Positions 7,123-27,675 are shown, numbered from the stretch's first letter. The stretch: DNA of 64,000 nucleotides from a virus (IMGVR_UViG_3300032323_002909:32001-96000), one strand, 5' to 3'. A program made the numbers and translations. Notes: generated by a model from the sequence alone, not told the origin.

Positions 7123-7575
7123 TTAATATCCTAGTAATCTTTTTCTACGAGTTTCGGGAATTGATACCGAAATGGTTTCCGAAAATGCCGAAGTAGGAAT
7201 TGTCGTGACCGTGCTAAGGAAAGGAAACACCGAAAAGGTATTATCATTATTCACAATAGCCATCGTGGAATTGTGTAAAGAAGATGGAATACTGAACACC
7301 GAACCCAGAATATTAACCGTAATATTAGGAACATTGGTAAGGGAAAAACCTGATGCAGTATTAACAGTTGTTCCCATCGAAACTTCAATAGGAGTAAATG
7401 CTAAACCAATATCAGAAGTTGATAAAGATATTGTTCCGATTTGACGTGCTGATACGAGAACAGAATCACCCGAAAGATAGGTAACACCAGTAGCTGACAG
7501 AGCAGCATTTGTAATATTAGGAACGCCAGTCTTTTGCGCGGAGAGAATATTGGAAGAGAATGTGTAGATGCTCAT
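7123..7575 (-). CDS. putative virion structural protein (S/T-rich, beta-rich)
   Basis: Late-type TAAATA 7 nt before ATG; S/T-rich composition; lies between capsid and gp5 genes. Confidence 0.55.
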   Translation of the reverse strand: MSIYTFSSNILSAQKTGVPNITNAALSATGVTYLSGDSVLVSARQIGTISLSTSDIGLAFTPIEVSMGTTVNTASGFSLTNVPNITVNILGSVFSIPSSLHNSTMAIVNNDNTFSVFPFLSTVTTIPTSAFSETISVSIPETRRKRLLGY

Positions 7576-7671
7576 ATGATATTATTTAGTCGTTTTGATT
7601 ATTTTTTTACAGAATTATTATTCTACCCCTGATTCTGTTTGTGTTTATCTCGCTAGTTACTAAATAATAAC

Positions 7672-8475
7672 ATGAACATAAATATCAAAGAAAAGAGGTT
7701 GTATATAGTAAGAAACCTAATTAATGGGAAGGTTTATGGCGGCAAGCACTACTGGAGTCCTGATACCAAATATATGGGTTCTGGTTATGCGCTGAAAAAA
7801 GCTTTTGAAAAGTATGGTAAAGAAAATTTTAAAATTCGTTGGTTAAAATTGAAAATAAAATCTTCGGAACATTTAGATCAATTGGAAATACGAATGATTC
7901 GTTTATTAAAACACATTTTTAGAAACAGATGTTACAATATTCAAAAAGGTGGATGTGGTGGTTACTTTACTTATTACATGAGTGATATCGAAAAACAAAA
8001 AGTTTTTAGAAAAATTAGTGAGGGTAAGAAAAGGCAATATGCAAATGGGTTTACAGAAGAACAATTGTTGGGGCATAAAAAAGCCAATCAAAGTAAAAAA
8101 CATAGAATGGACAACGATCCAGATTATTATAATGCCGTTTATATTAAAGGTAATGAAAAAAGAGTGAACTCTTTAAAAGAACGTAGAAAAGCACTTGGTT
8201 TAACTCAAAAAGAAATTGATAGACATAAAGATTTGATAAAATATAGTCAGAAAATAACTACTTATAAAATATTATATCCAAATGGTTTTGAAGTTGTTGA
8301 GACTAAAACTATCACAGAATTCATGGAAACTTATAAAACTGAATATAATATTTTTATAGATGCTAGAAGAAATGGTAAATTCGTTTTTAAACGTAGAACT
8401 TCGATGACTAAACATCCTTTTCCACCAAATACTGAATTGTATATTATAAATGAAGTTCGAGGATGTGATATATAA
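7672..8475 (+). CDS. GIY-YIG (Seg-like) free-standing homing endonuclease
   Basis: LYIVRNLINGKVYGGKH..YMGSG..LKKAFEKYGKENF..E..YNI..GG; inserted in opposite orientation downstream of gp23. Confidence 0.85.
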   Translation: MNINIKEKRLYIVRNLINGKVYGGKHYWSPDTKYMGSGYALKKAFEKYGKENFKIRWLKLKIKSSEHLDQLEIRMIRLLKHIFRNRCYNIQKGGCGGYFTYYMSDIEKQKVFRKISEGKKRQYANGFTEEQLLGHKKANQSKKHRMDNDPDYYNAVYIKGNEKRVNSLKERRKALGLTQKEIDRHKDLIKYSQKITTYKILYPNGFEVVETKTITEFMETYKTEYNIFIDARRNGKFVFKRRTSMTKHPFPPNTELYIINEVRGCDI

Positions 8476-8482
8476 AAACGAG

Positions 8483-8514
8483 GAAACCGCGAGGTCTTCG
8501 GCACTCGCGGTTTC
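8483..8514. terminator. intrinsic terminator hairpin between convergent endonuclease and gp23 genes
   Basis: GAAACCGCGAG...CTCGCGGTTTC 11-bp stem, cTTCGg in the loop, T-rich flanks on both strands. Confidence 0.75.
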
Positions 8515-8562
8515 AAAATATTTTTGGTTGTAACTACTTGAGCTTCAACTATTTATAATTTA

Positions 8563-10068
8563 TTATAAATATGTCGAAACCGAACCAGGTGTAAACGCAG
8601 TACCGAGACCTTTAACGATGATCAAATGGTAGTAAAGATTAGCACCGAAAATGTTATTCACGATACCATAGCGGGTCATAAGACCAACGCGAGGCGCGAA
8701 ATCATTTGGGCCAATCGTTCTTTGCACCATAATGGGGATATATGGGCAGTAGATAATACCAGTGTCATAGTATTCAGAACCTTTGTAACCCAACAGAGCA
8801 TACTCAACACCATTTCCACCGTTAGGCGAATTCGTGTAGGAGTTATTGTTTCTGTAGAGAGTAGTGTTCTGAACTTCAGTCCGAGTATCACGATAAACCG
8901 TCCAGCGGCTACCAACAGTACCAACTTTCGACACACCTACGCCAGCCGTGGAAACGGTTCCACCAACTTCAAATACTTTGAAGTCAGGAAGCATTTCAAG
9001 GATGCTGCATACACGTGGGGTGGCGATAACAAAGTTAGCAGCACCTCTACGGTTACGAGCAGCCATACGACCACTTTCGATGAGCAAGCGTTGATAGAAG
9101 GTAAGATTTCTTTCAGCAGTCCAACGACCATCCGCACTAACAGGGCTCCAAATGGAGAAACCTGCGCCAGCCCCAGCATTGAAGGCTGTTTGGATCATGC
9201 GCATCACAACTTCACGGTCGATTTCGGCTTGGATCTCATACGACATAGCATTCGTAAGTTCACCATCGATATCGATACCGTTCATGTTTTTGATGTCTTG
9301 CTCCAATTCAACCGACCAACGAGTAGCCAATCTACGTGTTCCAGCAACAACAGCGGATTTGTCGAACTTCAACTCGATTTGAGGGATTTTGCCCGTCAAT
9401 TCGTAGTTATTCAGAAGTTCAGCAATACCACGGTCTTGATCTGCGAAGCTCCAATGTTCGGTATTACCCGAAAGGAAGTTCGAAGACGTGCCAGTAAAGC
9501 GTGTATCCAGAAGTTGATAACCAAGTTCGTCACTAGTGGAACTAGTGTCATTCAACGAGGGGAGTCCAGCAGCATCAGATCCAGTGTAGGCAGCTTTTAA
9601 TTGTTCTCCAAACGAAGAACCGTTACCACCACCAGAAGGCTTACCGTCGATACTACCATCGCTCAGAGTATCACCTTGGTAGGCGTAACGAAGAGCAAAA
9701 GCAAGACCAACAGGTCCACCCATAGGCTGAACACCAACGATTTCGTTGGAGATCAATTCAGGGAAAGTGCGTCGAATCATAGGAATCAGAATCTTTGGAA
9801 GACGAGCATCGCCAGTAGCATAGCTATCGCTGTTAGCGATGCCATTACCGACACTACCAGTCGCACCAAACACGCCACCAGAAGCAGCAATGTTAGATTC
9901 TTGAAAGCACCACTGTTCTTGGTTCTCCAAAAGCATAGCGGTCGTTTTGTAAACGTGCTCATTTTGGATAGCAGGAATCGAGTTCGAGCTATAGTCCAAA
10001 ACTTTGCGCCATTTATTAACGGCTTGTTGCATTTTTGAAGTGTTTATATCAGATTGTGGGATATTCAT
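8563..10068 (-). CDS. gp23: major capsid protein
   Basis: LLENQE, IRRTFPELISNEIVGVQPMGGPVGLAFALR, WSVELEQDIK, EIQAEIDRE, YCPYIP, TRYG. Confidence 0.97.
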   Translation of the reverse strand: MNIPQSDINTSKMQQAVNKWRKVLDYSSNSIPAIQNEHVYKTTAMLLENQEQWCFQESNIAASGGVFGATGSVGNGIANSDSYATGDARLPKILIPMIRRTFPELISNEIVGVQPMGGPVGLAFALRYAYQGDTLSDGSIDGKPSGGGNGSSFGEQLKAAYTGSDAAGLPSLNDTSSTSDELGYQLLDTRFTGTSSNFLSGNTEHWSFADQDRGIAELLNNYELTGKIPQIELKFDKSAVVAGTRRLATRWSVELEQDIKNMNGIDIDGELTNAMSYEIQAEIDREVVMRMIQTAFNAGAGAGFSIWSPVSADGRWTAERNLTFYQRLLIESGRMAARNRRGAANFVIATPRVCSILEMLPDFKVFEVGGTVSTAGVGVSKVGTVGSRWTVYRDTRTEVQNTTLYRNNNSYTNSPNGGNGVEYALLGYKGSEYYDTGIIYCPYIPIMVQRTIGPNDFAPRVGLMTRYGIVNNIFGANLYYHLIIVKGLGTAFTPGSVSTYL

Positions 10069-10127
10069 ATATATTTGACTTTCTATTCACATTGTTCAGG
10101 ATTTCTCCTCATAGTGCGGGTGAAAAA

Positions 10128-11012: not shown

Positions 11013-11017
11013 AATAT

Positions 11018-11025
11018 TATTTATA
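11018..11025 (-). promoter_or_regulatory. T4-type late promoter TATAAATA, 5 nt upstream of gp22 ATG
   Basis: Exact T4 gp55 consensus; gp55 is encoded in the window. Confidence 0.8.
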
Positions 11026-11047
11026 GATTTAATGATATTTTTTTGAT

Positions 11048-11374: not shown

Positions 11375-11390
11375 AATATTATTTATCTTA

Positions 11391-12053: not shown

Positions 12054-12086
12054 ATTATTATTTAAGGTTATGTATGAAAAAATTCA

Positions 12087-12957: not shown

Positions 12958-13746
12958 TCAATATACCCACTGAAAAGAATTATCTTCAAATAGCGTTTTT
13001 CTCAATAATGTCTCCAATGATTTATAATCTGCTTGTTGGAAAATATTGTTGTTTATATGTATTAAAAATGCATTCATACCACTATCCAGATATGTATAAC
13101 TAGAACTTGTTGTTAGTCCTGTGAGTGTCTGTGTTGTTGTGCCATAGTTTAATCCGATTGTGTTAGGGTTTGACACATAACCTGTTGTATTACCAACAGC
13201 ATTTCTAGAGAATCCTGTAAAGGCTACAAAATCTCTATTATTGTTACCGCCTATATTACCACGAAAAACAACTCCACCTTTTACAGTATCAAAATAGGTA
13301 AACCAATCAGTATTAGCTGATACTGTACCACCTAGCCATGATCCAGCGTCAGAAAAATGACCAATTAAACGCTGATTAACTCTAGTAAACAAGCCACCAA
13401 CACAACACATAGTACCTGTAAAATTATTTGGTACATATGTCAAACTTGTAAAATTTATACTAGTAGTTATACCATTTGGTGTCCACCTTGAAGCGTTTGA
13501 AACAGTACCATTAAAAATACCTAGTCCACCTAAGCTATAAACAGTTGTACCTGCCCCAGCATTATGAATGCTTCTCATGGGGTAACAAACCATAGAATTC
13601 CACAATCCTAATTTTTTAATACCAATTACAAACTTATTAATCTGTCTCAAGTTTTCAGGTAATATAGTCTTACCGCTACCAGCTTTAACCCTAGCAGCAT
13701 AAGCAAGTGTATCGTTATCTAATCCGTATGTTCTTGTTCTTGGCAT
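12958..13746 (-). CDS. putative fibre/receptor-binding protein, paralogue 5
   Basis: Shared N-module YGL..T..Y..INKFVIGIKKLGLWNSMVCYPMRSIHN; variable beta-rich middle. Confidence 0.65.
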   Translation of the reverse strand: MPRTRTYGLDNDTLAYAARVKAGSGKTILPENLRQINKFVIGIKKLGLWNSMVCYPMRSIHNAGAGTTVYSLGGLGIFNGTVSNASRWTPNGITTSINFTSLTYVPNNFTGTMCCVGGLFTRVNQRLIGHFSDAGSWLGGTVSANTDWFTYFDTVKGGVVFRGNIGGNNNRDFVAFTGFSRNAVGNTTGYVSNPNTIGLNYGTTTQTLTGLTTSSSYTYLDSGMNAFLIHINNNIFQQADYKSLETLLRKTLFEDNSFQWVY

Positions 13747-13747
13747 A

Positions 13748-14563
13748 TTATGGTAGGTTTAGATTTTTACCGACTGTTTCTTTAATTAGTTTGTTAATAG
13801 AGAATACTTGTGAAGCAGAAAATCTTTTCTTTGCTATGAAGCACACACTAGCTGTTCCTATGTATCCACCGTTTCTAGTAAAAGATAATGTTATAGTTGC
13901 TGAGTTATAAGGTATAGTTGCAGCATTCGTGTTAGATGTTGCTGCTGATACACCATTTCTATATATTATCGTTCTTTCTCCAAGTCTACCTGTGTATATC
14001 CATGAATTGAACCCTGATAATGTATTTTCAGATAATGTAGCAAATGAACCAGCAAATCCAAATTCACCACCAAACCCAGTTCTAGGAGCAAACCAAATTA
14101 AAGAGTTACTAGATGAACCATCGACTCTCACTCCTGTTGCTAATAACCAGCCACCAACGTTACCTCCAGTAGTTGGCATAGTACCTATAAATCCTGCTGA
14201 TATTTCTGTCAAATCTACAACAAATCGTGGACCTGTCATACCAGCACCTAAAGGAAATATACACCCAGTATCACCACCAGTCACTGTTGCTGTGAATGTA
14301 CTAATTTGTTGGTTGTATTCAAAGTTTAGAGTTTTAAGAGGTACTACACGACGATCTGCTATTGAATTGTATTTGTTGCTATACAACCAAATTATCATAT
14401 CATTCCATACCCCTAAATCCTTCAACCCGATTACAAAGTTATCAATATCAACAGCATCAGAATTAGATATATCAGAAAGACCACTAGCCAATCTGTATAT
14501 ATTAACGATATTAAGATACCGCTTTGTATCAACATCAAATGTATATTTTCTTTCTGTTGGCAT
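13748..14563 (-). CDS. putative fibre/receptor-binding protein, paralogue 4
   Basis: IDNFVIGLKDLGVW module; IYRNG LamG-like strand; ends KETVGKNLNLP. Confidence 0.65.
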   Translation of the reverse strand: MPTERKYTFDVDTKRYLNIVNIYRLASGLSDISNSDAVDIDNFVIGLKDLGVWNDMIIWLYSNKYNSIADRRVVPLKTLNFEYNQQISTFTATVTGGDTGCIFPLGAGMTGPRFVVDLTEISAGFIGTMPTTGGNVGGWLLATGVRVDGSSSNSLIWFAPRTGFGGEFGFAGSFATLSENTLSGFNSWIYTGRLGERTIIYRNGVSAATSNTNAATIPYNSATITLSFTRNGGYIGTASVCFIAKKRFSASQVFSINKLIKETVGKNLNLP

Positions 14564-14564
14564 A

Positions 14565-15392
14565 TTATGGTAATCCTAATCCTTTACCGATTGTTGTTTT
14601 TAGTAAATTATATAATGCTGAATCTTGACTATCTGTAACTAAACTGTTTGATAAAAATACAAAGGAAGCTGTCAAGTTTAAAGCGACACCGTAACCACCA
14701 AATCTTACAAATCTAGGGTTAGAGCTATTCCAATCGCTTCCTGATGATGATTGATTTACTTGATTGGTATTAAGTGTAAATCTAGCTGTTGAGCCAGATG
14801 TGGGTCTTATAGAAAAGTAATGCCGACCAGTTCTAGTGACAGGCGTAGACGCACCCCCACCAGTGTTTGTAGAACTAAATGAGCTAACGCCAGGGGGCCA
14901 TAAATTTACATAAGTATTTATATTTTGTGCGCCAGTGCCACCTGAATTACCTATAGAAAATTGTCTACCACTTACATTAATTCCAGCAGTAAACCAATAC
15001 CCAGCGTTATTTCCTAAATCTGTAGCATTTTTTAACACTGCTCCGTAAGCAACTGGAGCTACACCGATATCTCTTATAGCTGTACTAAAAAGGTTACCAG
15101 AAGATGTAACCCTGGTAATACCTTCCGTACTCCATGTAGCAGAATCCAGTAAAGTAGCATCTGCTACCTGCCCACCACCCAAACTTAAAACTGTAGAGCT
15201 TCTCCCAATATTATGAATAGATCTCATAGGATAGCATACCATATTTTGCCATAGATTTAACTGCTTCAATCCCTTTACAAAATTATCTATATCTGCTACA
15301 TCAGTAGGAGCTAATTCTCTACCATAAGCATATAATCTTCTTAGATATTGCCTTGTCTCGTTTTGTAAGCCGTATGATTTTGATTGTATCAT
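14565..15392 (-). CDS. putative fibre/receptor-binding protein, paralogue 3
   Basis: IDNFVKGLKQLNLWQNMVCYPMRSIHN; ends KTTIGKGLGLP. Confidence 0.65.
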   Translation of the reverse strand: MIQSKSYGLQNETRQYLRRLYAYGRELAPTDVADIDNFVKGLKQLNLWQNMVCYPMRSIHNIGRSSTVLSLGGGQVADATLLDSATWSTEGITRVTSSGNLFSTAIRDIGVAPVAYGAVLKNATDLGNNAGYWFTAGINVSGRQFSIGNSGGTGAQNINTYVNLWPPGVSSFSSTNTGGGASTPVTRTGRHYFSIRPTSGSTARFTLNTNQVNQSSSGSDWNSSNPRFVRFGGYGVALNLTASFVFLSNSLVTDSQDSALYNLLKTTIGKGLGLP

Positions 15393-16228
15393 AAATTAAA
15401 TCTACTTCTCAAAAGGTTATAACTTGTTGTAAGTTCTGCTTGTGTTAATGCTCTATTATAAACTTTTAAGTTGTGTAGCCTCATAGATTGACTTGTCCCA
15501 TTTAGAATCCCGTTAAAACTTAGGTTAGAATTTGTAATAGGTGGTATGTAAGTCCTTCCTGTTTGACTTACCGACAAAACTCCATTGAGATGAACTGACG
15601 CTGTGTTTGTTGTTGTGTTATATGAGATTGTTAAGTTAACTGGTGATCCGTATGTTATTGAGTTTGTAGGAGTATTTAAACCAAAAACATTAGCAGTACC
15701 ACCTGGCACACTTTCACCATTCCAAAATGCAATGCTTCTATTTGATGGTGTAAATCCACATCTAAACCCTCGTGTTAGATACGCTTCATTGAAAAATAAC
15801 GAACTAGAAAATGGACCAGTTCCACTTAGTATAGTAACCCAACTATCAATAGTGAATGCTCCTGTTATACCATTGCTATTCCATGCTACTCCACCAGATT
15901 GACTGTTATTTAAAAAAATTGAACCACCATTGGAGTTATCATATTGAAGAGTTGATGGAAGAACAGCATTAAACGAACGATTTATTAAATTTTGGAAAGT
16001 TGTAGATACAAGTGGAAAGCTAGCAGGTATTGAAGCATCCATCCATATACTAGGTAAGAGTGAATATTCGATAAGCTGTGTTGGTGTCATCGACCAGTTG
16101 AAATTTTTTTGAGTTATGCAAAAATTATTAACTGTCTGAATAGGTACTGTTGGTGTAATACCTCTCACCTCACAAGCCTTCAGATATTCTTTCGTCTCTT
16201 TCTCTAAATTGTAATATCTTTTTGCCAT
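15389..16228 (-). CDS. LamG/concanavalin A-like lectin-domain virion protein, paralogue 2
   Basis: WMDAS.PASF, FTIDSWV, VHLNG, LKVYNRALTQAEL..YN..RSRF is a typical phage LamG domain; N-terminus YYNLEKETKEYL is shared with neighbours. Confidence 0.75.
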   Translation of the reverse strand: MAKRYYNLEKETKEYLKACEVRGITPTVPIQTVNNFCITQKNFNWSMTPTQLIEYSLLPSIWMDASIPASFPLVSTTFQNLINRSFNAVLPSTLQYDNSNGGSIFLNNSQSGGVAWNSNGITGAFTIDSWVTILSGTGPFSSSLFFNEAYLTRGFRCGFTPSNRSIAFWNGESVPGGTANVFGLNTPTNSITYGSPVNLTISYNTTTNTASVHLNGVLSVSQTGRTYIPPITNSNLSFNGILNGTSQSMRLHNLKVYNRALTQAELTTSYNLLRSRFNL

Positions 16229-16231: not shown

Positions 16232-17194
16232 TTAGGGTAGTCCGAGGTTTGAGCCGAGGGTTGATTTTACTAAATTGTTTAAACTTGATATTTGAACGGC
16301 ATTGAGTGCTATATTGTTAAAGCAAGCACCAAAGCCTACATAGCCTTTTGAATGACCAAAACTATCTTGCACCCCATCATCCATAAACGTAAATCCTTGA
16401 TCAGATAGAATTGCAGGAGAACCAAAGGTGGAATTGCTATTTGCAAAAGATCCATTTTTGTATGCTAATAAAGCACCACTATTAAACACTAAAGCATGAG
16501 TATGGTATTTGTTATATTCAAGTAATGAATTGGTTTGGGACCATGTGGTAGTGCTAGAAGGATTTGTATCACCACACTCACTTTGATATTCAAACCCCCC
16601 AAACCCCATACCTCTAAAAGTACCAAATTGACCAAAACGAGTAGGTGCATTCCATGTTGTTATAAAGTGTCCGCGTTCTACAACAACAGATCCTGGCTCT
16701 GTTAAACCAGCTACAAATAATGTTTTTTGCCTGTAATTAGTTTGTGCTAAGTTACTTACAATCATTCTAGGTCTTGCTACACTGCCAGAAAAATATAATC
16801 CAGATATATCCCATGTTGGACTGTTTTGAGCGGTACCGTTAAATATCCCTAAGCCGCCCATACTGTAAACCGTGGTGCCAGTGCTAGCATTTTGATAATT
16901 TCTCATCGCCCAAGCTACCATATTCTGCCAAAGACCTAATGCCTTCACACCTCTTGTAAACCAAAGCACTTCACATCTACCTAAAGGATTAGTGACTCCT
17001 GCTCTAGCAAGATAAGCATCACCATCAGTATCATTAAATCCTAGACTAAATCTAGACCAATCGCCAGATCTCTTCAAGCTCTCAACTCTATCATTGATAG
17101 TTTTTACAGTAGACGGAGATACAATAATGCCATTCTCAGCCTGAAGGCGGTTGATATATGCTTTGACTTCATTTTGTATCCCATAGTATTTCAT
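16232..17194 (-). CDS. putative fibre/receptor-binding protein, paralogue 1 (duplicated N-module)
   Basis: ATG at 17194 overlaps the upstream TGA; YYGIQNEVKAY..; FTRGVKALGLWQNMVAWAMR; AYKNG; ends KSTLGSNLGLP. Confidence 0.65.
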   Translation of the reverse strand: MKYYGIQNEVKAYINRLQAENGIIVSPSTVKTINDRVESLKRSGDWSRFSLGFNDTDGDAYLARAGVTNPLGRCEVLWFTRGVKALGLWQNMVAWAMRNYQNASTGTTVYSMGGLGIFNGTAQNSPTWDISGLYFSGSVARPRMIVSNLAQTNYRQKTLFVAGLTEPGSVVVERGHFITTWNAPTRFGQFGTFRGMGFGGFEYQSECGDTNPSSTTTWSQTNSLLEYNKYHTHALVFNSGALLAYKNGSFANSNSTFGSPAILSDQGFTFMDDGVQDSFGHSKGYVGFGACFNNIALNAVQISSLNNLVKSTLGSNLGLP

Positions 17195-17934
17195 CAAACA
17201 CCTTCCCAAAAAATGTATTGTCCTGATAGTCCAGATAATGTATTAACTGAAACATCCCCCTTGTATCTATCATCAGAAAACTTCTCTCCTCTGCCATCAT
17301 ATGCTGCTGTTCCTGGATATAACATAAAGTTAAATGAGTTCTGGTTGCATCCTAGACCATATTTAACATATAGTGGTTGTGTTCCTAGATTTTGTCCGAA
17401 TAGTGTAATTCTATTTGAGTTAGCTGATAGCACCTGTGTACCTACACCTGTAAGAGCAGTACCTAGTGTTGCTCCAGTTAGGAAGTTGGAAACAGAACCA
17501 TAACCAATATCAAATGTAGTCACACTATCAATATCTTTATCCAAGTCTCCTTGTAGTGCCATCGCTCCTCCTGTCTGAGCATCAATAGTAATAAAGGCAT
17601 TTGTACCTGTTAAAGCAGGGACAGCAGATATAGAAGTGATAGGAGAGTATGATGTAGCATCAAAGTATCTTGCATAAACTGGTGCTGTTAAGTCATCAAC
17701 AAATATCTGAAGTCTATCTGTACTCAACATTGAAGTTGTTGTAGCACTCAGTGTAAGAACATTACCAGTTAAAAATCCACCTCTAGTTGGATCTGCAAAG
17801 TTATAAATTATAGAATTCCGTGTTACATTGGTGATCAATAGAATTTGATCCAGTGTAATATTTGGATAACTGGTAATCTGCACTCTACCTACAGGTGATG
17901 CAGAAAAGGAATATGATGTTGTTAAGGTCTTCAT
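17194..17934 (-). CDS. fibre-associated virion protein
   Basis: ILLITNVTRNSIIYNFADP and DRLQIFVD motifs typical of phage fibre proteins; late promoter. Confidence 0.6.
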   Translation of the reverse strand: MKTLTTSYSFSASPVGRVQITSYPNITLDQILLITNVTRNSIIYNFADPTRGGFLTGNVLTLSATTTSMLSTDRLQIFVDDLTAPVYARYFDATSYSPITSISAVPALTGTNAFITIDAQTGGAMALQGDLDKDIDSVTTFDIGYGSVSNFLTGATLGTALTGVGTQVLSANSNRITLFGQNLGTQPLYVKYGLGCNQNSFNFMLYPGTAAYDGRGEKFSDDRYKGDVSVNTLSGLSGQYIFWEGV

Positions 17935-17958: not shown

Positions 17959-18426
17959 TTATCCTACTGCAATAGCCATTGCTATAGCAAATGTTTCTGT
18001 TGATAGTTTTGATCCACTTGCAAATGCATCACCTGATGCACTTAAATTGCCTGATACTGTTAGGCGTTCATTAGGAGCGGACGTTCCGATACCAACATTG
18101 CCAATATTGTTAACTGCTATTCTAGTTGCTCCTGAAGTATTAAAAAAGATAGTACCACTATTAAAAATAATACCTGTTGTAGTATCCAGAGTATACAGGA
18201 GTCTATTTCCCCATATATCTCCAACAACATGAAGTGCAACAGATGGAGAAGCTGTACCTATACCAACTCTATTATTAACACTATCCACAACCAGTGTATT
18301 TGTATCAACTGTTAAATTGCCTGATACACTTACTGATTTGGTAAATGCAATACTAGCACCAGCATTCAGATTATTGAGTGCTGCATTAGCTGCTAGTGAG
18401 TTATTTGTGATTCTTGTTGTTGGCAT
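17959..18426 (-). CDS. short fibre protein
   Basis: NRVGIGTASPSVALHVVG and GNVGIGTSAPNERLTVSG fibre repeats; C-terminal FAIAMAIAVG. Confidence 0.7.
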   Translation of the reverse strand: MPTTRITNNSLAANAALNNLNAGASIAFTKSVSVSGNLTVDTNTLVVDSVNNRVGIGTASPSVALHVVGDIWGNRLLYTLDTTTGIIFNSGTIFFNTSGATRIAVNNIGNVGIGTSAPNERLTVSGNLSASGDAFASGSKLSTETFAIAMAIAVG

Positions 18427-18430: not shown

Positions 18431-21400
18431 TTATCCTATTATTTCAGTTTCAATATAACTACCTGCTAAACAAGTAACAGTTCCAGTTCCCGCATACGCA
18501 TTCCAGTTAAAATTTGTTGTGCCATTAACTAGAGGTTTTAAAATCATTTCGACTTCTATTGTTTGGTTTTGATTAGCTGCAGTATTTGCTATCCCTAGTA
18601 CGCTGAAAGGATTGGCTGATACTAGAATATTGTTAGCAATAATACCACCACTTCTCTTTAACAAAAGCAAACCAAATTCACTATTCACACCGCCAATGCC
18701 AGCAGCTACTTGAGCACCACCAGCACCCACCACTTGTACAAATAACTTGATTCTATATATATTTCCTGTTAAGAGCGGAAGTGTTAATACAGGGTCAATT
18801 TGCCCAGCAAGAGTAGGCGTAGATCCAACAGCACGAACTAAATCTACTGTTCTTATTGCCCGTTGAATGCCAGCTAATGATAGAAATGTATATCCTGTGC
18901 AGTCACTCAGCACACCATTATTAATAGTTGGATTTGTCAACGTTAAATTCGGAGCCAACTTAGCACTCGTTACACTACCATCACTTGGAATCAACTCCCC
19001 GACTTGTAGCGTATTTGTTGGTGCTATTACTACTGCTTTTGCTCCACTTGCTAATGGATCGGTGAATATGATATTTCCAGCACTTAAAGTATAGTCAACG
19101 CTTGGTTCTTGTAATGCACCATCAATAGCAACAATAAGTGCTGATGGATTGGTTAAGCTACCAGCACCAGAAAGTGGAAATGATGAAAGAACACCATTAC
19201 CAGTAATAGTTGTTCGTGTAGGTGTAACTACAGTAGCAACTCTATTGCCATTTGAATAGATATCACCAGCAGACAAGTTTCCAGCACTGACTGTTCCATT
19301 GATAGTAACATCGCCAGTTACATTAAAACCTGATAGTTCGTATTGTTTGATATCAATTACTGTGATATTAGCAGAGAGAGCATCGAGATGGTTAGTAAAG
19401 ATTCTATCAGCAGAAAGTGAACTAACCGAGAGTGTTTTAGTATTACGCCAGACACCACTTAGAGCATCGTATGATAAAACATCACCACCAGATAAGTTAG
19501 TAATTCTTACATTGTGAAGTTCATCGATCTCATAACCATTATCAACCTTAACAAAGATCTTACCTTCGTTTTGATGAGCATATACAACAAAACCAACAAC
19601 TACTGTATGATTAGGTGCTTGTGGTTTGATATTAGTGAGTCTACCAGCAGTGAATGGTGATAGGAATAATACATCACCATCGATCCATGTTTCACCTTGA
19701 AGGCTACCAGTAGTGTTAATTTTACGAACAAGACCGCTTGTTGTAACGAAGCCTTCTTCATTTCTTACAATAGTTTCTGTTACCAGTCCAAGTGTATCAA
19801 CACTATTCGGGTCATTATTTGCTTGTGCTAATACAACTGCTAGTCTCTGACCTTGAGCACCTCCTTCAGCAGTAGATCTAATTCTTACTACACTATACTG
19901 TGATTCTAGTAAATCAGAAGCAGTTTTATTAACAACTCTAGCAATAGACTCCTGACCGAGTTGAAGCGTAACATTTCCACCCTTTAATCCAAGATCAAGA
20001 GTACCATCCGTATCATTCCATGTAAGTCTACCAGGTCTTGATGATAGTGCTGTATTGGTAGTGAACTGGATACTTTCAACATTTAAGTCGCCACCTGAAA
20101 CTCTACCACCACTTAAAGCTGTGATTGAGCCATTAACAATCAAGTTGCCGTTCATGGTTCCTCCATCTTGGTATTGAGTAGCGTTTGTTCCACCGCCACT
20201 AGCATATACCGCAACGTATCGTCTTAAATCCGTTTTATAATTTTCAAATTTATCATGGATTTTTTTATTCCATTCTTTTTCAATAGCATCCCAATCTTTT
20301 ACAATTTTTTCTTTATTTTTAGATTCTATTATATATTCAACAGGTTTTTCATTTTTAAGCTGTCGAATTTCTGCTAATAAATTATCTCTACTTTCTTGAA
20401 ATAAATTTTGAAAATATGAACGTGCTTCGTCGGTAATATCTAAAGTTTCTTCTTTGATATTTTGTATTTTATCATCGAAATAGCCAATTACTTCTTGCTC
20501 GGTTTCAGCAATTTTCTTTTCTAAATTTTCATTTATTTCGATAATTTTCTTATCTACATTACCAACTCTAGATAGAGCTTTTTGAACACCTTTATTAATG
20601 GTGTTGTTCAATTCTATATTAGAATCTCTAATAGTATCAATTTCTCTATTGACTTGCTCAAGTAAAGATATATCAGCTTTTTTATCTAATTTTTTATTTA
20701 AATTTTTATCAATTGTTGATACTTTATCAACAACATCAGATGCAATACTACCAAGTTTTTCTTCTAACTTGTGGGTTATATTCTTTTCGTAAAGTTCTTT
20801 TACTAATTTTTTAATCGTAGTATCAAATAATTTGGAAGAATCCTCAAAATTATTTTTTAATGATTCTCTTAAAGAATTACTAATATCTTGAATTTTGAGA
20901 TCGATTCCATCACGAATCTCTTTAAATCTATCATCATTTTCAAAAATAATATCTTTTTTAATTTTATTTGAAATCTTGATAAATTCTTCAACTAAATTTT
21001 CACGAGATTCACTTAATACTTTTTGAAGCGCTTTCTGTCGTCTGACACTTTCATTTTTAATATCTTGAATTTTTTTTAATTTATTCTTTTCTAAAATTTC
21101 TAAAGACTTCTTAGTAGCGTCTTTTTTAATTTTATTAATCTCTTCGATGATTTGTTGTTTTTTATTATCTACTACATCATCATTTTTTATTGAAAATGAT
21201 TCTTCGATTGTAGTGATTATTTCATCCTCCTCTACATTTTCTTCAATTTTGTCTAAAATGGAAGAGGGATCGGAACTCGGATTAAAATATATTTCTTGTT
21301 TCCCTTTTATAAGGACAAAGGGATGTTCAGCAGAAAGATCATCGTTTTCAACGATAATAGAAACAATCGGGTTTCCATTGTCTTCGGAAACCTTCTCTGC

Positions 21401-21529
21401 TACATATTTTCTACCGTTTATCTCGACCTCATAAACACCGAAGAAAATTTCATCAAAATTTTCAACTTGTAAGATGTTGAGAGGGGAGTTAGACGAGGTA
21501 TAATTGACCTCTTCGCTAAACAATCTCAT
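18431..21529 (-). CDS. long coiled-coil plus fibre protein (fibritin/whisker- or tail fibre-like)
   Basis: About 440 aa E/K-rich coiled coil, a GGGT hinge, then beta-fibre domains (WNDTDGTL, ELHNV, VAIDGALQEP..DYT). Confidence 0.65.
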   Translation of the reverse strand: MRLFSEEVNYTSSNSPLNILQVENFDEIFFGVYEVEINGRKYVAEKVSEDNGNPIVSIIVENDDLSAEHPFVLIKGKQEIYFNPSSDPSSILDKIEENVEEDEIITTIEESFSIKNDDVVDNKKQQIIEEINKIKKDATKKSLEILEKNKLKKIQDIKNESVRRQKALQKVLSESRENLVEEFIKISNKIKKDIIFENDDRFKEIRDGIDLKIQDISNSLRESLKNNFEDSSKLFDTTIKKLVKELYEKNITHKLEEKLGSIASDVVDKVSTIDKNLNKKLDKKADISLLEQVNREIDTIRDSNIELNNTINKGVQKALSRVGNVDKKIIEINENLEKKIAETEQEVIGYFDDKIQNIKEETLDITDEARSYFQNLFQESRDNLLAEIRQLKNEKPVEYIIESKNKEKIVKDWDAIEKEWNKKIHDKFENYKTDLRRYVAVYASGGGTNATQYQDGGTMNGNLIVNGSITALSGGRVSGGDLNVESIQFTTNTALSSRPGRLTWNDTDGTLDLGLKGGNVTLQLGQESIARVVNKTASDLLESQYSVVRIRSTAEGGAQGQRLAVVLAQANNDPNSVDTLGLVTETIVRNEEGFVTTSGLVRKINTTGSLQGETWIDGDVLFLSPFTAGRLTNIKPQAPNHTVVVGFVVYAHQNEGKIFVKVDNGYEIDELHNVRITNLSGGDVLSYDALSGVWRNTKTLSVSSLSADRIFTNHLDALSANITVIDIKQYELSGFNVTGDVTINGTVSAGNLSAGDIYSNGNRVATVVTPTRTTITGNGVLSSFPLSGAGSLTNPSALIVAIDGALQEPSVDYTLSAGNIIFTDPLASGAKAVVIAPTNTLQVGELIPSDGSVTSAKLAPNLTLTNPTINNGVLSDCTGYTFLSLAGIQRAIRTVDLVRAVGSTPTLAGQIDPVLTLPLLTGNIYRIKLFVQVVGAGGAQVAAGIGGVNSEFGLLLLKRSGGIIANNILVSANPFSVLGIANTAANQNQTIEVEMILKPLVNGTTNFNWNAYAGTGTVTCLAGSYIETEIIG

Positions 21530-22530: not shown

Positions 22531-22568
22531 TTATATATTTAATGAGTAAAGGTGAATTTGAAAATTAC

Positions 22569-23711
22569 TCAACTTACTAACATAAGCGGTGGATCATAGT
22601 CACCGAAGCCACCATCCATCAACAATTCTTCCAAAGTCTTTTTCTCCTCGATACCCTCAGACAATATCGTTTCACCATTTAAAGTGCCTCCACCTGGTAA
22701 AGATACCCCTGTAATTTTAGTGAGAATACGACCCCACATTACCTTTGACAGTGCGGTGGCGTATTCCAAAACCCATTTTTCTTTGATCAAATCTCTCAAT
22801 GGTTTTTCAACATAACATGTCAAGAGACCATAGAATTGCGTATTTCTTGGTTGAGGAATCAAGCGTAAATATTGCGTTCTCGAATCAAAATAAATATCCC
22901 TACGAGTAGCAAACATTTTTTCTCTCGTATCGATCCAATCTTTTACTGTGTGCCAAGACAGAATATCAAAACCATAATTACCCAGAGAATAAGCATGGAA
23001 AGATTGTTGTGCCATTGTTTGTTCTACGGAGAATAGAGTGTTGACACCAGTTGTTGAACCTTCTTCAAACGCGATAACATCGATTACTTTACGATAATCC
23101 ATAACATCATAATCAAACATATTATTGAATGCTGTGACATCTTCTTGCGGCTCACACTGCACTGTAAAAGGTTTTTGATAAGATTCTTTGAAATAAACAC
23201 TCAAAGATGGGTTGAAATCAATTAATAAATCATAGGTTGTTTTGTCTATGATTTCCATTGTTGTTATACCTTCTGATGGCACAACCGAACTCAACGAAGA
23301 CGAAGCACTAAAATAAGAATTGGGTATCGTGGACAGAGAAATATACAACGATTCAGGTCTTTTGATTTCAAAATCTGGTTGTGGTCCTTGTCTTTTATTT
23401 TGTAATTTTTCAGATGGAGTGTAACCAGAATTTGCTACCGTGAATAATGTGTCTAATCTGATGCCTCCGTTTTTATCATAAATTCTACTATCAAAAATCA
23501 AATATTCTTTTGAATAACCAGCATATTTGGTATACATATCTAGAGCCATCGATATAGCTTCGTGCAATTGGTCGTAGTGCAACTCAACATTAATCATTGG
23601 ATGTCCCAACATTCTAAGGATTCTTTCACCCAATCTCTGATAACATTCTATTTTAGAATTCAGATTGGTTGACATGAAAGCTGAAATTGGCTCTATTTGG
23701 CATAAACTCAT
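22569..23711 (-). CDS. gp13: neck protein
   Basis: ILRMLGHPMINVEL..Q, WVLEYATALSKVMWGRILTK..LPGGGTLNG; start moved to ATG 23711, after TAAATA. Confidence 0.9.
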   Translation of the reverse strand: MSLCQIEPISAFMSTNLNSKIECYQRLGERILRMLGHPMINVELHYDQLHEAISMALDMYTKYAGYSKEYLIFDSRIYDKNGGIRLDTLFTVANSGYTPSEKLQNKRQGPQPDFEIKRPESLYISLSTIPNSYFSASSSLSSVVPSEGITTMEIIDKTTYDLLIDFNPSLSVYFKESYQKPFTVQCEPQEDVTAFNNMFDYDVMDYRKVIDVIAFEEGSTTGVNTLFSVEQTMAQQSFHAYSLGNYGFDILSWHTVKDWIDTREKMFATRRDIYFDSRTQYLRLIPQPRNTQFYGLLTCYVEKPLRDLIKEKWVLEYATALSKVMWGRILTKITGVSLPGGGTLNGETILSEGIEEKKTLEELLMDGGFGDYDPPLMLVS

Positions 23712-23752
23712 ACCATTATTTAGTGAAAATATCAAAATGGATAAATAATAGT

Positions 23753-24049
23753 ATGTCTTTTGAATCTAATAACGGCACAACTTATTTGAAATTATCTTGT
23801 GGTATTCCCTCTGAGGTAGGTTGGAGTTTGTCCGCGAATAACGGAACAAAATATTTATATCTTTCGGCGAATGATTTTATTCTTTGGGGTCAAAGCACTG
23901 TGTTTATTCATCCATCATCAAATAATACCAATAATTATTATTTTTTAGTTTGTCAAAGACCCACTGATACTACTTGGTCGCCGTTATCCAATAACAGTAC
24001 AAAATTTTATTACAATTCTGCTTATAATTGTATTACTTTCTGTGCTTAA
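23753..24049 (+). CDS. small late protein with internal NN(G/S/T)T-type repeats
   Basis: GATAAATA-ATAGT-ATG start; SNNGTTY, ANNGTKY, SNNTNNY, SNNSTKF. Confidence 0.65.
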   Translation: MSFESNNGTTYLKLSCGIPSEVGWSLSANNGTKYLYLSANDFILWGQSTVFIHPSSNNTNNYYFLVCQRPTDTTWSPLSNNSTKFYYNSAYNCITFCA

Positions 24050-24053
24050 ATTT

Positions 24054-24061
24054 TATAAATA
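24054..24061 (+). promoter_or_regulatory. T4-type late promoter TATAAATA
   Basis: Exact consensus 5 nt before ATG 24067. Confidence 0.75.
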
Positions 24062-24066
24062 ATAAC

Positions 24067-24741
24067 ATGAGTTTTTGGAAATTAATAACAGAAAATATTG
24101 AAGCAGTTGCAGGTATTTTCGGGGTCATAACCAGCATTATGGTATTTTTGATTAAAGGTAAAAAATATATTATCGAAAAATATAAAAAACATAAAGAATA
24201 TTCCAAATCCAAATATTTGATTCCTGAAACTCTACAAGAAATAAAACAGTGTGTCATCAGTCTAGATGATCGTGTTAAGAGAGTAGAATACGAAATTTCT
24301 CCGAATAGTGGTGGTTCCATGAAGGATTCCATGAATATTGTAAAGGCTGAAATTGAAGCTATGTTCTGGTTGAATCCAAAACCGTCATTTCGTACAACAT
24401 CTAAAGGAATGAATATTCAAGTAAATGAATCATATTGTCATTTATGCTCAACGTCTTCCGAAGAACTGTTGAAGCAAAATTGGAAAAATTTTATAGAAGA
24501 TGAAGAACAATTGGATGACTTCATGAGACGGTGGGAATATTCTTCAAACAGCATGTCTCAATATTCTGGTAAATTAAAATTTAAAAATTTTAGAAATGAA
24601 AGCTTGGGCGAATGGATTATAAAAATTAGACCATTGGGACCAATAGAAGGCGGTAAAGATTATCTATGGCATGGTTCAATATTACCATCCGACGATACCG
24701 CTAAAGAGTATGCTAAAAGCTACAATATACCGTATCATTAA
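24067..24741 (+). CDS. membrane-anchored PAS-domain protein
   Basis: N-terminal TM (AVAGIFGVITSIMVFLI), coiled coil ending PNSGGSMKD, then PAS-like G..IQVNESYCHL....EELL.QNW.NFI. Confidence 0.65.
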   Translation: MSFWKLITENIEAVAGIFGVITSIMVFLIKGKKYIIEKYKKHKEYSKSKYLIPETLQEIKQCVISLDDRVKRVEYEISPNSGGSMKDSMNIVKAEIEAMFWLNPKPSFRTTSKGMNIQVNESYCHLCSTSSEELLKQNWKNFIEDEEQLDDFMRRWEYSSNSMSQYSGKLKFKNFRNESLGEWIIKIRPLGPIEGGKDYLWHGSILPSDDTAKEYAKSYNIPYH

Positions 24742-26562
24742 TTATCCAGGAGCGGTTTCACCAGCAGGTGCTTCGGGCGTTTCAGCGGGTTCTGTTTCAG
24801 CACCAACATCAGTACCTTCTTCACCACCAAGTGTAGCACCAGAGCCACTAAAATCAGGAGGCATTCCACCGCCACCCATGCTGCCACCCATTTCGCCTCC
24901 ACCCATTTCACCGCCACTTTCAGCGGATTGAGCAAGCATTTCTTTCCAATTCGGACCGCTAGATTTAATCTGTTCGATTTCGAACATGAATTCGGCTTCG
25001 TTTCGTAAAAAGTGACGATTTGCCAAGATATCAGAATCTTTCCAATCTAGATATTTTTTCATGGCAAATGTGGTCGATACTAATTCGTTGTTTGATATAT
25101 TATTAAATGTGTCTATTTTGAGATTAAGCTTTTGACTTTCTCTCATATCATAGAAATTAGTAGGAACATTGAATTCTATTCTAAGATTATCATCGAATAG
25201 ATCATTTTCATCAAACATTTCTTTGAATTTTAAATGAGTAATAAATGCTCGTTTAATACCTTGAGCAAATCTTTGTTGTTGACGAATAATCATTTTCGCA
25301 AATTTTAATTCTTCACGAAGCATTTCTGTGCCGTCACTATAACCTGTCTCATTGTTCAAACGAGAAGTTGGAGTTTTCAAAGAACGATAAAGCTTTTTAA
25401 TAAACCAATCTAAAACATCAAGATTTCCATCTGATGGTTGACCACCAAATGTTTCGACTGATGTTCCTTCCTGTCCTTGCCTTTTAGCAAACCAAAAGGA
25501 ATCCAAGGTGGATTGTGGTGCATATTTCTTAACAATGTCTCCTTGGTCGATATCAAAAGTCTTAGTTGACCAATATTGGGATTGTAGCTTGCGTAGGTAT
25601 GCTTCTGCCTGTGGGACTGGCAACTTACCCACATCCACGTTAAATAAGAAACGCAACGGCGCATGTACCATTCTATGGATAACCACAGAATCTTCGATCA
25701 TCGATAATTGCCTGTATGCTCGTCGGCAATTCTCGACAAATGGAATTATAAAATCTTTGGTCTCATTATATTGACCACTGTTGATATAGAGAATCTGATT
25801 CTTTTCGAAAGGAATATATTCATATTTTTCAACTTTTCTATTATCAACAGCTGAAAATATTGGCTTTTTATAAATAAAAGCTTTGACCAACATAGTTTGA
25901 ATGTTGTCATATACTGGGTCGAATTGATCAGCGGGTAGATTTTTGACAGCAACTACGCCTTGTTTGATATAATCATCTTTCAGAATCAACTCGAAAAATA
26001 ATTCACCTTCAATTAAAAATTGTCGAAAATAATGCCACCCATTATCTTCCAGTTCCAACATCGCCACAAATTTGGAAAATTCTTTTTGTAGCTCTTCTTT
26101 TTTCTCCGAATCTAATTCAGCGTTTTTAAACTTAAGTGTTACAATTTCACCATTTTCATCGACATTAATAGTTTCGTCACAGATTTCATCTAATGCATCA
26201 GAAACTTCCGAGAACGCTGCGATCATTCTATAATCTCTCAAGCGACCAGGTTTTTCCTCTGATGCTTGGGAATACATCAAGTCAGTAAAAGTTTTATCCT
26301 GATAAATCGCAGAAAACGCAGTGTTGTTCCAATCATTATTAAGCGCTACAGAGTTTCTTGCTATAGCTTCGGGTTTACGCATCCCGATTTTTTGGAAATG
26401 CTTATATTTAGCATTTTTAGTTTCGTCTATATTTTGTTCAGCATAACCATTACGATTTTTCAAATAAGACTGAACATTTCTGTCGAATGTAGATCCCCGT
26501 CCATCACTTCCGACGAATGATCTATTTTGAGATTGTGTAGATGAACTATCTGCTCCAGCCAT
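24742..26562 (-). CDS. gp20: portal vertex protein
   Basis: YRMIA..EVSDALDEI, QLSMIEDSVVIHR..AP.R..F.VDVG.LP..AEAYL, FWFAKR, LYRSLK.P.SRL, REELKFAK. Confidence 0.95.
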   Translation of the reverse strand: MAGADSSSTQSQNRSFVGSDGRGSTFDRNVQSYLKNRNGYAEQNIDETKNAKYKHFQKIGMRKPEAIARNSVALNNDWNNTAFSAIYQDKTFTDLMYSQASEEKPGRLRDYRMIAAFSEVSDALDEICDETINVDENGEIVTLKFKNAELDSEKKEELQKEFSKFVAMLELEDNGWHYFRQFLIEGELFFELILKDDYIKQGVVAVKNLPADQFDPVYDNIQTMLVKAFIYKKPIFSAVDNRKVEKYEYIPFEKNQILYINSGQYNETKDFIIPFVENCRRAYRQLSMIEDSVVIHRMVHAPLRFLFNVDVGKLPVPQAEAYLRKLQSQYWSTKTFDIDQGDIVKKYAPQSTLDSFWFAKRQGQEGTSVETFGGQPSDGNLDVLDWFIKKLYRSLKTPTSRLNNETGYSDGTEMLREELKFAKMIIRQQQRFAQGIKRAFITHLKFKEMFDENDLFDDNLRIEFNVPTNFYDMRESQKLNLKIDTFNNISNNELVSTTFAMKKYLDWKDSDILANRHFLRNEAEFMFEIEQIKSSGPNWKEMLAQSAESGGEMGGGEMGGSMGGGGMPPDFSGSGATLGGEEGTDVGAETEPAETPEAPAGETAPG

Positions 26563-26592
26563 ATTTATTATTTAAGGACAATTACTAATATT

Positions 26593-27675
26593 TCAATAAG
26601 AACTTACCCATGCAACTTCATTCGCAGTGATAAATACAGCATTTCCATTAAAATTGTTAAAATAGTCAGCACTGAGTGATATGGATGCCACATTATTATC
26701 TATTGTAGTGATCACATTATCAGGTAATTTGTAAGCAGATATGGTAGGGGACTTCACAGTATCGATTTCAACATAATTTAATTCAGGTATTGACGTGTTA
26801 GCACTCAGATACCATGTATTATTATAATTTAGATTTTTACCATAAAATGTAAAAAATTTATCATTCAAATCTGAAACCACTAATGGACTTTCCCGAGGAT
26901 TACCATTTATAAAATAATTAGTTAAATCTGGATAAGCACCCACTGAAAGTGATTCAGTCTGAACACCGATTGCGCTGATAGAATCAAATAGATTATAATC
27001 ACAAAATCTGTCACTGACTGGAAGTGCATGAAAGTCTGCATTTATTTTATAAATCGGAGATTGTTTAGGATTATCATAGTTTTTGAATAACCAACCCTTG
27101 ATAGTAAAGTTTGTTTCGGCAGAAATTCTCCATTTTACATCTGGTGATAGATCTTTTGGATTATTGTAACTTATATTACCAGACCATTGAATTTCAGAAC
27201 GGATTTCGTCTAAAAATGGTAAATTAAATTTTTCGGGGAATTTCCAAGATACTATAATATACGGATTACAATTTACCACGAAATTTTGAATAATTTGATC
27301 TAGATCTTCTTTGAAATAACAAATTATATTAACGTTCAATTCTAAATTAACTGGTATGGGAGTCGGTATTTTCACTAACCCATTATTAACATCTAGTTGT
27401 TTTCGATATAAAAATTGATCTTTGTTTTGTATACGATTTGCGTCTCTACTGAGACTTGTTTGTTCTATAGTAACAACAGGAAGTGATAGAGTTTTGGCTC
27501 TATCACTCAAGTCTTGAAGCACTCTATGCTTCGGTCCGTGGACGTATCTTACCTCTATTTTTTCTTTTTCAACTCTAGTTCTCGCATCATATCGATACAG
27601 AAAAGCATCATCAAAAGCAGATACGAAGAGATTAAGGAGTTGAGAGTTTTCAAAAAAGTATGAGTAATCGTTCAC
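26593..27675 (-). CDS. gp15: tail terminator/sheath stabiliser with C-terminal extension
   Basis: F.SAFDD, V.Y..GPK, LSLP, P.PVNL..N..I, QIIQN, FTIKGWLF. Confidence 0.8.
   Translation of the reverse strand: MNDYSYFFENSQLLNLFVSAFDDAFLYRYDARTRVEKEKIEVRYVHGPKHRVLQDLSDRAKTLSLPVVTIEQTSLSRDANRIQNKDQFLYRKQLDVNNGLVKIPTPIPVNLELNVNIICYFKEDLDQIIQNFVVNCNPYIIVSWKFPEKFNLPFLDEIRSEIQWSGNISYNNPKDLSPDVKWRISAETNFTIKGWLFKNYDNPKQSPIYKINADFHALPVSDRFCDYNLFDSISAIGVQTESLSVGAYPDLTNYFINGNPRESPLVVSDLNDKFFTFYGKNLNYNNTWYLSANTSIPELNYVEIDTVKSPTISAYKLPDNVITTIDNNVASISLSADYFNNFNGNAVFITANEVAWVSSY

Follow-up and report, generated by a model that had tools for sequence, protein, structure and literature searches.

What would lead a series of unrelated virion proteins of one phage to accumulate the same three amino acids? 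The question is raised by a 64,000-nucleotide stretch of viral DNA (hereafter, the window) that comprises bases 32001-96000 of the 150,461-bp IMG/VR virus record IMGVR_UViG_3300032323_002909, estimated to be 73% complete. The source genome is that of a T4-like myovirus of low G+C content (~33%); its portal protein is less than 30% identical to that of every deposited phage, and it thus has no cultured relative. A preliminary description of window positions 7123-27675 had drawn attention to tripeptides of the broad class [LIVF]-[ST]-[AG] in exposed virion proteins and had proposed them as the Ser/Thr acceptor sites of a phage-encoded glycosylation system. We find that the exceptional unit is considerably narrower, namely Leu-Ser-(Ala/Gly), that its excess is a matter of protein sequence and residue order, and that it extends across a whole clade of uncultured phages. 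As an explanation we tentatively put forward a serine tag read by a phage enzyme, with a structural strand-turn unit as its most serious competitor.

An ordered excess of Leu-Ser-small tripeptides

All 8000 tripeptides were scored with each protein corrected for its own composition. In the structural modules (window 4.0-30.5 kb and 79-107.5 kb, the second of which runs past the window end), LSA ranks first of the 8000, with 28 occurrences in 15 proteins against 5.6 expected (p 1e-11). LSG (21 vs 7.3) and LSS (23 vs 9.8) are in excess as well, and the next unrelated tripeptide reaches p 4e-6. Over the entire genome the excess is 3.0-fold for LSA, 2.0-fold for LSG and 1.7-fold for LSS, and LSA ranks third, behind SNF and PNT, each of which owes its rank to tandem repetition within one protein. 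For L-S-[AG] the non-structural proteins stand at about 1.2-fold, and the proteins of the sugar-gene island discussed below contain one site where 3.0 are expected.

This excess acts at the protein level and is order-specific. There are 41 LSA in the genome, compared with 15-20 for each of the five other permutations of L, S and A; with dipeptide correction LSA remains at 2.3-fold in structural proteins against 0.87-fold in non-structural ones. At the motif Leu is preferred over Ile, Val or Phe, and Ser over Thr. A word selected at the DNA level is ruled out, as the 41 LSA are encoded by 30 different 9-mers in which TCN and AGY serine codons are both used, in the background mix. Low G+C content is likewise ruled out as the cause, since low-GC loci around distant GT11 glycosyltransferase genes give LSA at 1.0-fold. 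It could be objected that the motif was originally picked by eye, and that the contrast with a coiled coil which accompanied it is an effect of composition, so that the whole might be an artefact of composition, low G+C, a DNA word or the after-the-fact choice of a pattern. We consider this extremely unlikely: LSA tops an unbiased scan, with a p value far under the threshold for that many tests, the residue-order, codon and dipeptide controls all hold, and the low-GC loci show no excess.

The broad class as largely a general property of beta-rich virion proteins

The by-eye counts of the [LIVF]-[ST]-[AG] class were all reproduced by script. There are 11 sites in the 246-residue protein (2.5 expected from shuffles, z 5.5), 18 in the 1032-residue neck fibre (5.9 expected, z 5.1), seven in the gp15-like tail terminator (1.0 expected, z 6.4), five of which lie beyond residue 230, four in the gp13-like neck protein (1.6 expected) and four in the 150-residue protein (1.8 expected, z 1.8), these last being NILSAQ, ALSAT, YLSGD and VSAR; a small plus-strand gene among the neck genes carries SLSAN and YLSAN (see Table 2 for the positions of all these genes). 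With all open reading frames of the region 7123-27675 pooled, the class occurs 76 times against 37.6 expected (z 6.5), and without the fibre 58 times against 31.8 (z 4.9), so that correction for composition does not make the enrichment vanish. The scarcity of the class in enzymes was also borne out, the non-structural proteins standing at 1.02-fold. The contrast that had been drawn between the two halves of the neck fibre (17 sites beyond residue 469, one within the first 450) is uninformative, because the single coiled-coil site matches what composition predicts (0.79).

As a sequon, the class is nevertheless too wide. Genome-wide it is enriched merely 1.37-fold, its Ile, Val, Phe and Thr members being at about 1-fold, and L-S-[AG] makes up 34% of its sites here (16% expected) as compared to 12.5% in unrelated phages (13.9% expected). 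Moreover, unrelated phages likewise have the class in 1.46-fold excess in their structural loci, and T4 Hoc has it at about 3-fold (8 vs 2.5 expected); it is therefore largely a general property of beta-rich virion proteins; apart from Leu-Ser-small, most of it is ordinary beta-strand and turn sequence. We know of no report that Hoc is glycosylated. The proposal in its first form, with the whole class, Ser or Thr alike, as acceptor for the 13-gene island at 31943-43723, can call upon class counts above shuffles in three proteins and region-wide, on the interchange of LTG, LSG, ITG and VSA at one column of the 246-residue protein and on the reality of the island itself. It must still be regarded as very unlikely, given that the Ile/Val/Phe and Thr members are not enriched, that unrelated phages have the class in equal excess and that the conservation of the island does not follow the motif. 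What survives of the suggested virion glycosylation system is a real, ordered excess on non-homologous virion proteins; the class as its acceptor motif does not.

The carrier proteins

In orthologue groups drawn from 55 relatives, whose ratios pool related sequences and are not independent samples, L-S-[AGS] is enriched 7.8-fold in the gp15-like terminator, 6.1-fold in the 150-residue protein, 5.8-fold in the 246-residue protein, 5.2-fold in the small plus-strand neck-region protein, 4.1-fold in the neck fibre and 2.5-fold in the gp13-like protein. There is no such enrichment in the orthologues of the portal (0.28-fold), protease, scaffold and core proteins. The carriers had been described as unrelated, and at the profile level they are: a shared domain was sought by all-against-all hhalign of nine orthologue alignments and rejected, all probabilities being below 2%. 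Ten motif-bearing proteins gave no Pfam match at E <=0.1 to the known repeat families (pentapeptide, hexapeptide, Phage_fiber), and a PDB sequence search found no solved relatives of the carriers.

The sites are situated at strand ends and turns of outward-facing, beta-rich parts of the virion, that is, the neck fibre, small neck and head-module proteins, the gp15 extension, the outer sheath domains and the tail fibres, and in this respect too the emphasis on exposed parts was justified. In the sheath, for example, all five sites fall within residues 112-392 and the conserved C-terminal part (563-766) has none. The neck fibre, whose gene adjoins those of the gp13-like and a putative gp14 protein and which matches tail-fibre PHROGs at residues 778-859, has nine L-S-[AG] in its fibre half against 0.98 expected (z 8.3; 17 vs 6.0 for the broad class), and eight of these tripeptides lie within residues 660-830, where 0.37 are expected (z 12.8).

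The gp15-like protein is recognizable over residues 13-217 (PF16724, E 1.2e-11; Foldseek match to T4 gp15, 4HUH, E 1.8e-7), and the sites accumulate in its clade-specific C-terminal extension. Residues 270-360 of this extension are modelled as a beta-sandwich (predicted local distance difference test, pLDDT, 70-85) that bears ISA, LSA, ISA, LSA and ITA, with the ISA at 312-314 placed at a strand start. The site at residue 290 persists, in the form LSG, LSA or LSS, in 29 of 31 relatives (tallies at this residue: 15, 10 and 10, respectively), and in such homologous columns the first two residues, L and S, do not change, whereas the third alternates between A, G and S. Elsewhere there is turnover of sites (ISA/LSA, FSN/LSA/FNN, LSG/FNG), and two gp15 subclades each have about three sites at partly different positions.

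Among the smaller carriers, the 150-residue protein, for which no family match was found, has three L-S-[AG] and one VSA within its first 45 residues (L-S-[AGS] 3 vs 0.57 expected; nine orthologues enter its group), and the LSA at residue 11 is present in 5/5 distinct sequences. The small plus-strand protein has 16 orthologues with a median identity of 67%. The 246-residue protein is the densest carrier of the broad class, with four LTG, two LSA, two LSG, ISA, FSA and LTA, and S/T, L/I/V and A/G interchange at its homologous columns. Its N-terminal 85 residues are a module of many unrelated phages (phrog_5838), with 44-67% identity across 134 diverse IMG/VR loci, jumbo phages included, and 43-48% in Arthrobacter phages; the C-terminal domain is clade-specific. 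The model of this protein is usable solely for residues 1-80, where an LTG and an LSA are found inside strands, and is of low quality further on (mean pLDDT 43.6).

Distribution among phages

The excess is found across the whole clade of uncultured T4-like phages to which this genome belongs (Table 1), reaching 5-fold for LSA in the subgroup of portal relatives at 58-63% identity, and the preference for Leu and Ser within the broad class is specific to the clade. In a complete relative (G004), homologues of the structural modules have a 3.0-fold excess and all other proteins 0.78-fold. In a complete sister-clade genome (G012) LSA is at 2.0-fold and LSS at 1.9-fold, borne by large fibre-like proteins and by the gp15 homologue. 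The clade also includes loci free of an L-S-[AG] excess (L068-L070, ~0.8-1.0-fold); there, the orthologue of the 246-residue protein is 275 residues long, contains an insertion and has lost both LSA sites (LNY/FNY, VSG).

Table 1. Observed-to-expected ratios of tripeptides in comparison sets (broad class, [LIVF][ST][AG])
Set	LSA	LSG	L-S-[AG]	Broad class
55 portal relatives (58-93% portal identity)	3.2x	2.2x	2.65x	1.53x
Sister-clade loci (portal ~42%)			2.4-4.6x; L073 1.24x	
Unrelated phages with only the N-terminal module of the 246-residue protein	1.2x	1.4x	1.32x	1.46x
Low-GC loci around distant GT11 genes	1.0x	0.86x		1.07x
32 T4 virion proteins	1.4x	1.17x	1.28x	1.04x

A possible serine tag and its candidate enzymes

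A five-fold outlier tripeptide that appears on non-homologous folds, in one clade and on outward-facing parts is something that rules of structure seldom produce, and because of this we favor a sequence-specific reader. Our tentative proposal, to which we would give somewhat less than an even chance, is that Leu-Ser-small is a serine tag, probably for O-glycosylation by a phage glycosyltransferase. Inside the infected cell, a conserved enzyme of the phage would read the Leu-Ser-(Ala/Gly) unit as the tag; the candidates for the O-glycosylating enzyme would be the clade-wide GT2 glycosyltransferase and the pair of GT11-like proteins (Table 2), and the variable enzymes of the island would then extend the glycan into a sugar coat on exposed parts of the virion.

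The glycosyltransferase island of the preliminary description is real: Pfam families identify three GT11 genes, a GT17-like gene, a GT25, four GT2 and sugar-nucleotide enzymes. The first two GT11-like genes, in tandem beside the packaging module, have an invariant H-x-R-R-G-D-Y motif (H126, R128, R129, G130, D131, Y132) in 12 sequences, which contains the nucleotide-sugar motif H-x-R-R-x-D typical of fucosyltransferases, along with a weak profile match to the alpha-1,6-fucosyltransferase FUT8 (6TKV). At least one such copy occupies the same position in most sufficiently flanked members of the clade, even where portal identity is as low as 58-63%. Every genome that has the motif also has glycosyltransferases. 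No gene of the ThyA/dCMP-hydroxymethylase family was found in this record or in two complete relatives, which makes it unlikely that these enzymes serve in T4-style DNA glucosylation. Within the island, the Pfam scan likewise returned no heptosyltransferase family (GT9-type); the search for one was not extended to the remainder of the genome.

Judging from sequence conservation, if the motif is a tag then the GT2 protein is the best candidate for the conserved enzyme. It has homologues in G004 (E 9e-63) and G012 (E 6e-49), and both genomes share with the present one not only this GT2 but also the neighboring AAA_28 protein and, at a weak level, the GT25. Among 50 other phage contigs, its orthologue occurs only in G012 and G009, both of which have the excess; G009 (3.06-fold) has GT11-like genes as well. 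Outside the clade, the four scanned contigs with a GT11-like gene have L-S-[AG] ratios of 3.06, 2.52, 1.21 and 1.11, and no gene of this type exists in the complete genome behind locus L134 (3.97-fold). We note that GT2 and the adjacent P-loop AAA_28 gene are kept together as core genes of the clade; their homologues are at separate places in a sister-clade genome that is devoid of most of the island.

The loose link to the sugar genes leaves room for a tag that is read by something other than a glycosyltransferase, for example as a site of phosphorylation, acylation or nucleotidylation, or as a binding site for an assembly chaperone or a protease. Such a reader would rest on the same sequence specificity as a glycosyltransferase, and the P-loop AAA_28 protein beside the conserved GT2 also has a homologue in the sister clade. 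Nonetheless, no kinase, acyltransferase or protease is singled out, the 3 to 12 sites per protein make cleavage unlikely and glycosyltransferases are the sole abundant modifying enzymes seen; we therefore consider this alternative improbable.

Tag or structural unit?

The anatomy of the sites suggests a quite different explanation, in which the serine stays bare. The usual form is L-S-[A/G]-[N/G/D]-x-[I/V], and this could simply be a strand-end or tight-turn unit (a "rung") of fibre shafts and add-on beta-sandwiches, with the Leu and the Ile/Val at +5 packing inward and the Ser and the small or turn-forming residues forming the turn. Duplication of repeats within fibres, together with the exchange of modules between fibre and decoration genes, would account for the spread of the unit. 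In our estimation this purely structural explanation is almost as probable as the serine tag, both falling somewhat short of an even chance.

A number of observations favor it and, by the same token, weigh against a glycosylation tag. At the sites of this genome N/G/D is enriched 1.8-fold at +3 and I/V 2.7-fold at +5 (p 4e-5). The eight sites in residues 660-830 of the fibre belong to degenerate units mostly 11-15 residues long, the first six being spaced 11, 15, 13, 14 and 20 residues apart. In the model of the gp15 extension (pLDDT 70-85), the LSA at 290-292 and 334-336 and the ITA at 349-351 are at C-terminal strand ends. At some homologous sites Asn takes the place of Ser (LSG/FNG, LSA/LNY, FSN/FNN), which fits the capping of turns. 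Taken together, the context and the spacing of the sites are roughly as compatible with a structural strand-turn unit as with an acceptor site. The broad-class enrichment of Hoc and of structural loci in unrelated phages, mentioned above, also speaks for a structural unit, as do some unrelated fibres that reach about 5-fold and a protein of 17-residue repeats whose four LSA share the codons CTC TCT, and so arose by descent.

Other objections concern the tag itself. The non-virion proteins, which are cytoplasmic, do not avoid the motif (1.24-fold), and the major head protein has a single L-S-[AGS], at residue 199, where chance predicts 0.8. As for the island, its content differs from relative to relative, G004 having homologues of only some of its genes, and G012 keeps the excess without a GT11-like gene and without most of the island, so that the tie to this particular island, as first suggested, is weak. 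Some unrelated phages that have no GT2 orthologue possess moderately enriched fibres (for example, L134 and L100-L102), and the association of GT2 with the motif is confounded by kinship, as G012 and G009 are probably kin.

A purely structural origin has difficulties of its own. Structural constraints seldom fix one tripeptide, and the strand-favoring residues Ile, Val and Thr are not enriched here. The T4 virion proteins have no such outlier, their best tripeptide having merely p 9e-5. The carriers have neither detectable homology to one another nor a known repeat family, the L-S-[AG] sites of unrelated phages do not have the +3 and +5 context, and the region 7123-27675 with the fibre removed still has 17 sites against 5.5 expected.

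Gene context

The positions of the genes concerned are collected in Table 2. On the opposite strand between the genes of the 150-residue protein and the major head protein there is a homing endonuclease gene. Four paralogous genes and a fifth, longer one separate the neck fibre gene from the prohead-core genes; their products belong to no recognized family, have no L-S-[AGS] enrichment and match each other's orthologues at 25-45% identity. The two conserved plus-strand genes between the minus-strand portal and gp13-like genes encode proteins of 120 and 237 residues with 16 and 37 orthologues, respectively, and no family match was found for the larger one.

Two repeat proteins are encoded elsewhere in the genome. 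An 888-residue protein (genome 126083-128749, +, equivalent to window coordinates 94083-96749 and hence extending beyond the window end) contains a unit of exactly 17 residues, SNF[FL]G.NAG..ATNA.N, repeated 36 times in tandem; two positions of the unit are hypervariable, and the protein looks like a regular beta-solenoid. A coupling of L and S at these two positions (Fisher p 2.5e-4) was set aside as the result of descent, all four LSA being CTC TCT. Before the window, at genome 3386-4876 (-), a 496-residue open reading frame is mostly made up of four-residue repeats of the PNT[ITSA] type (35 PNT).

Table 2. Genes and protein segments referred to in the text, in window coordinates
Feature	Position	Strand	Match
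150-residue protein rich in Ser and Thr, immediately downstream of the major head protein gene	7123..7575	-	
Homing endonuclease	7672..8475	+	phrog_314, E 8e-20
Major head protein	8563..10068	-	phrog_138
Four paralogous genes (~270 residues each)	12958..16228	-	
325-residue protein	16232..17209	-	
246-residue virion-module protein	17194..17934	-	
155-residue fibre-like protein with VSGNLTV and VSGNLSASGD	17959..18426	-	phrog_5906, 3269, 9942 (tail fibre)
1032-residue neck fibre (whisker-like): N-terminal coiled coil of ~450 residues, C-terminal fibre half	18431..21529	-	
Fibre residues 679-830: degenerate units of 11-15 (one 20) residues, each opening L-S-[AG]-x-[D/N/R]-[I/V]	19040..19495	-	
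gp13-like neck protein (head-tail adaptor) with extra sequence	22569..23735	-	phrog_211, E 3e-26
Small conserved gene among neck genes (120 residues)	23687..24049 (earlier start 23753)	+	
Both conserved plus-strand genes	23687..24741	+	
Portal	24742..26562	-	phrog_213
gp15-like tail terminator	26593..27675	-	PF16724, 4HUH
gp15 clade-specific C-terminal extension, residues 226-360 (~130 extra)	26596..27000	-	
Two tandem GT11-like (fucosyltransferase family) genes	31943..33456	-	PF01531, E 1e-14, 5e-17
Rest of island: two SDR epimerase/dehydratases, DegT-type aminotransferase, DUF3431, GT17-like, C-methyltransferase, third GT11-like, three GT2, GT25	33453..43723	-	
GT2 glycosyltransferase common with sister clade	42926..43723	-	PF00535
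P-loop AAA_28 protein	43726..44463	-	
Tail sheath	beyond window		

Comparison with known glycosylation systems

Fletcher et al. reportedly described, in 2009, a general O-glycosylation sequon of the Bacteroidetes, D-[ST]-[AILVMT]. It resembles the present motif in that three residues define a Ser/Thr acceptor and the acceptor is followed by a small or hydrophobic residue. That system, however, operates in the periplasm, and phage particles are put together in the cytoplasm. This sequon is not enriched here (1.09-fold in structural and non-structural proteins alike), nor is the N-glycosylation sequon N-x-[ST] (1.06-fold structural, 0.93-fold non-structural).

The closest parallel among phages is with mycobacteriophages, whose exposed virion proteins are proposed to receive glycans from phage-encoded glycosyltransferases, as a shield (Freeman et al. 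2023, as related in PMC12619734). According to the same account, the subunits of the capsid and the tail tube carry the glycans at their C-termini (PMC12619734). Phage-encoded glycosyltransferases are likewise present here. Unlike those C-terminal sites, the candidate sites here are a defined internal tripeptide, borne by add-on parts of the terminator and by the neck, fibre and sheath, with no enrichment in the head protein; the host and the phage lineage, that of an uncultured T4-like myovirus, are also different.

The cytoplasmic heptosyltransferase TibC modifies serines, and not threonines, before small residues (QN-S-GG, NT-S-AA; eLife 2014;3:e03714, PMC4358343), and the passenger domain of its target TibA, with modified Ser-313 and Ser-322, is a repeat-rich beta-helix (eLife 2014;3:e03714). 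TibC/AAH is thus a precedent for a cytoplasmic enzyme that can modify serines before small residues on a beta-helical, repeat-rich protein. As in TibA and AIDA-I, the sites here are many, prefer Ser, are followed by A, G or S and, in the fibre, belong to units 11-15 residues apart, although this is a likeness of sequence and nothing further. The differences are that a Leu preceding the serine is not reported there, that virion proteins of several different folds are the targets in this phage and that the island yielded only GT11, GT2, GT25 and GT17-like families in its Pfam scan, with none of the GT9 type.

In giant viruses (Mimivirus and the chloroviruses), clusters of virus-encoded sugar-nucleotide and glycosyltransferase genes are described as serving to glycosylate fibrils and capsids (PMC9614988). 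The likeness is in the large virus-encoded rare-sugar cluster with many transferases, which there decorates outer virion proteins; the giant viruses, unlike this phage, infect eukaryotes. To our knowledge no Leu-Ser-small acceptor has been described for them.

Implications for the clade

Extended to the aquatic T4-like clade as a whole, the glycosylation hypothesis would hold that a conserved glycosyltransferase O-glycosylates neck, sheath, baseplate and fibre proteins via exposed strand-end Leu-Ser-(Ala/Gly/Ser) sites, a generalization that is possible but on balance doubtful. If it is true, the glycosylation of phage virions would, as far as we have found, gain its first defined sequon, and the tail of a myovirus would carry a glycan coat. 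Modification of these serines would furnish a readable signature by which glycosylated virion proteins could be predicted from metagenomes, and a target could be assigned to the many sugar-gene islands of aquatic T4-like phages; the effect of a glycan coat on adsorption, particle stability and recognition by host defences would then become testable. If the motif is instead structural, it would represent an undescribed strand-turn unit diagnostic for the outer domains of the clade, and would aid in the annotation of unnamed tail proteins. Either way, this simple statistic tells outer from inner virion proteins in the clade without recourse to homology.

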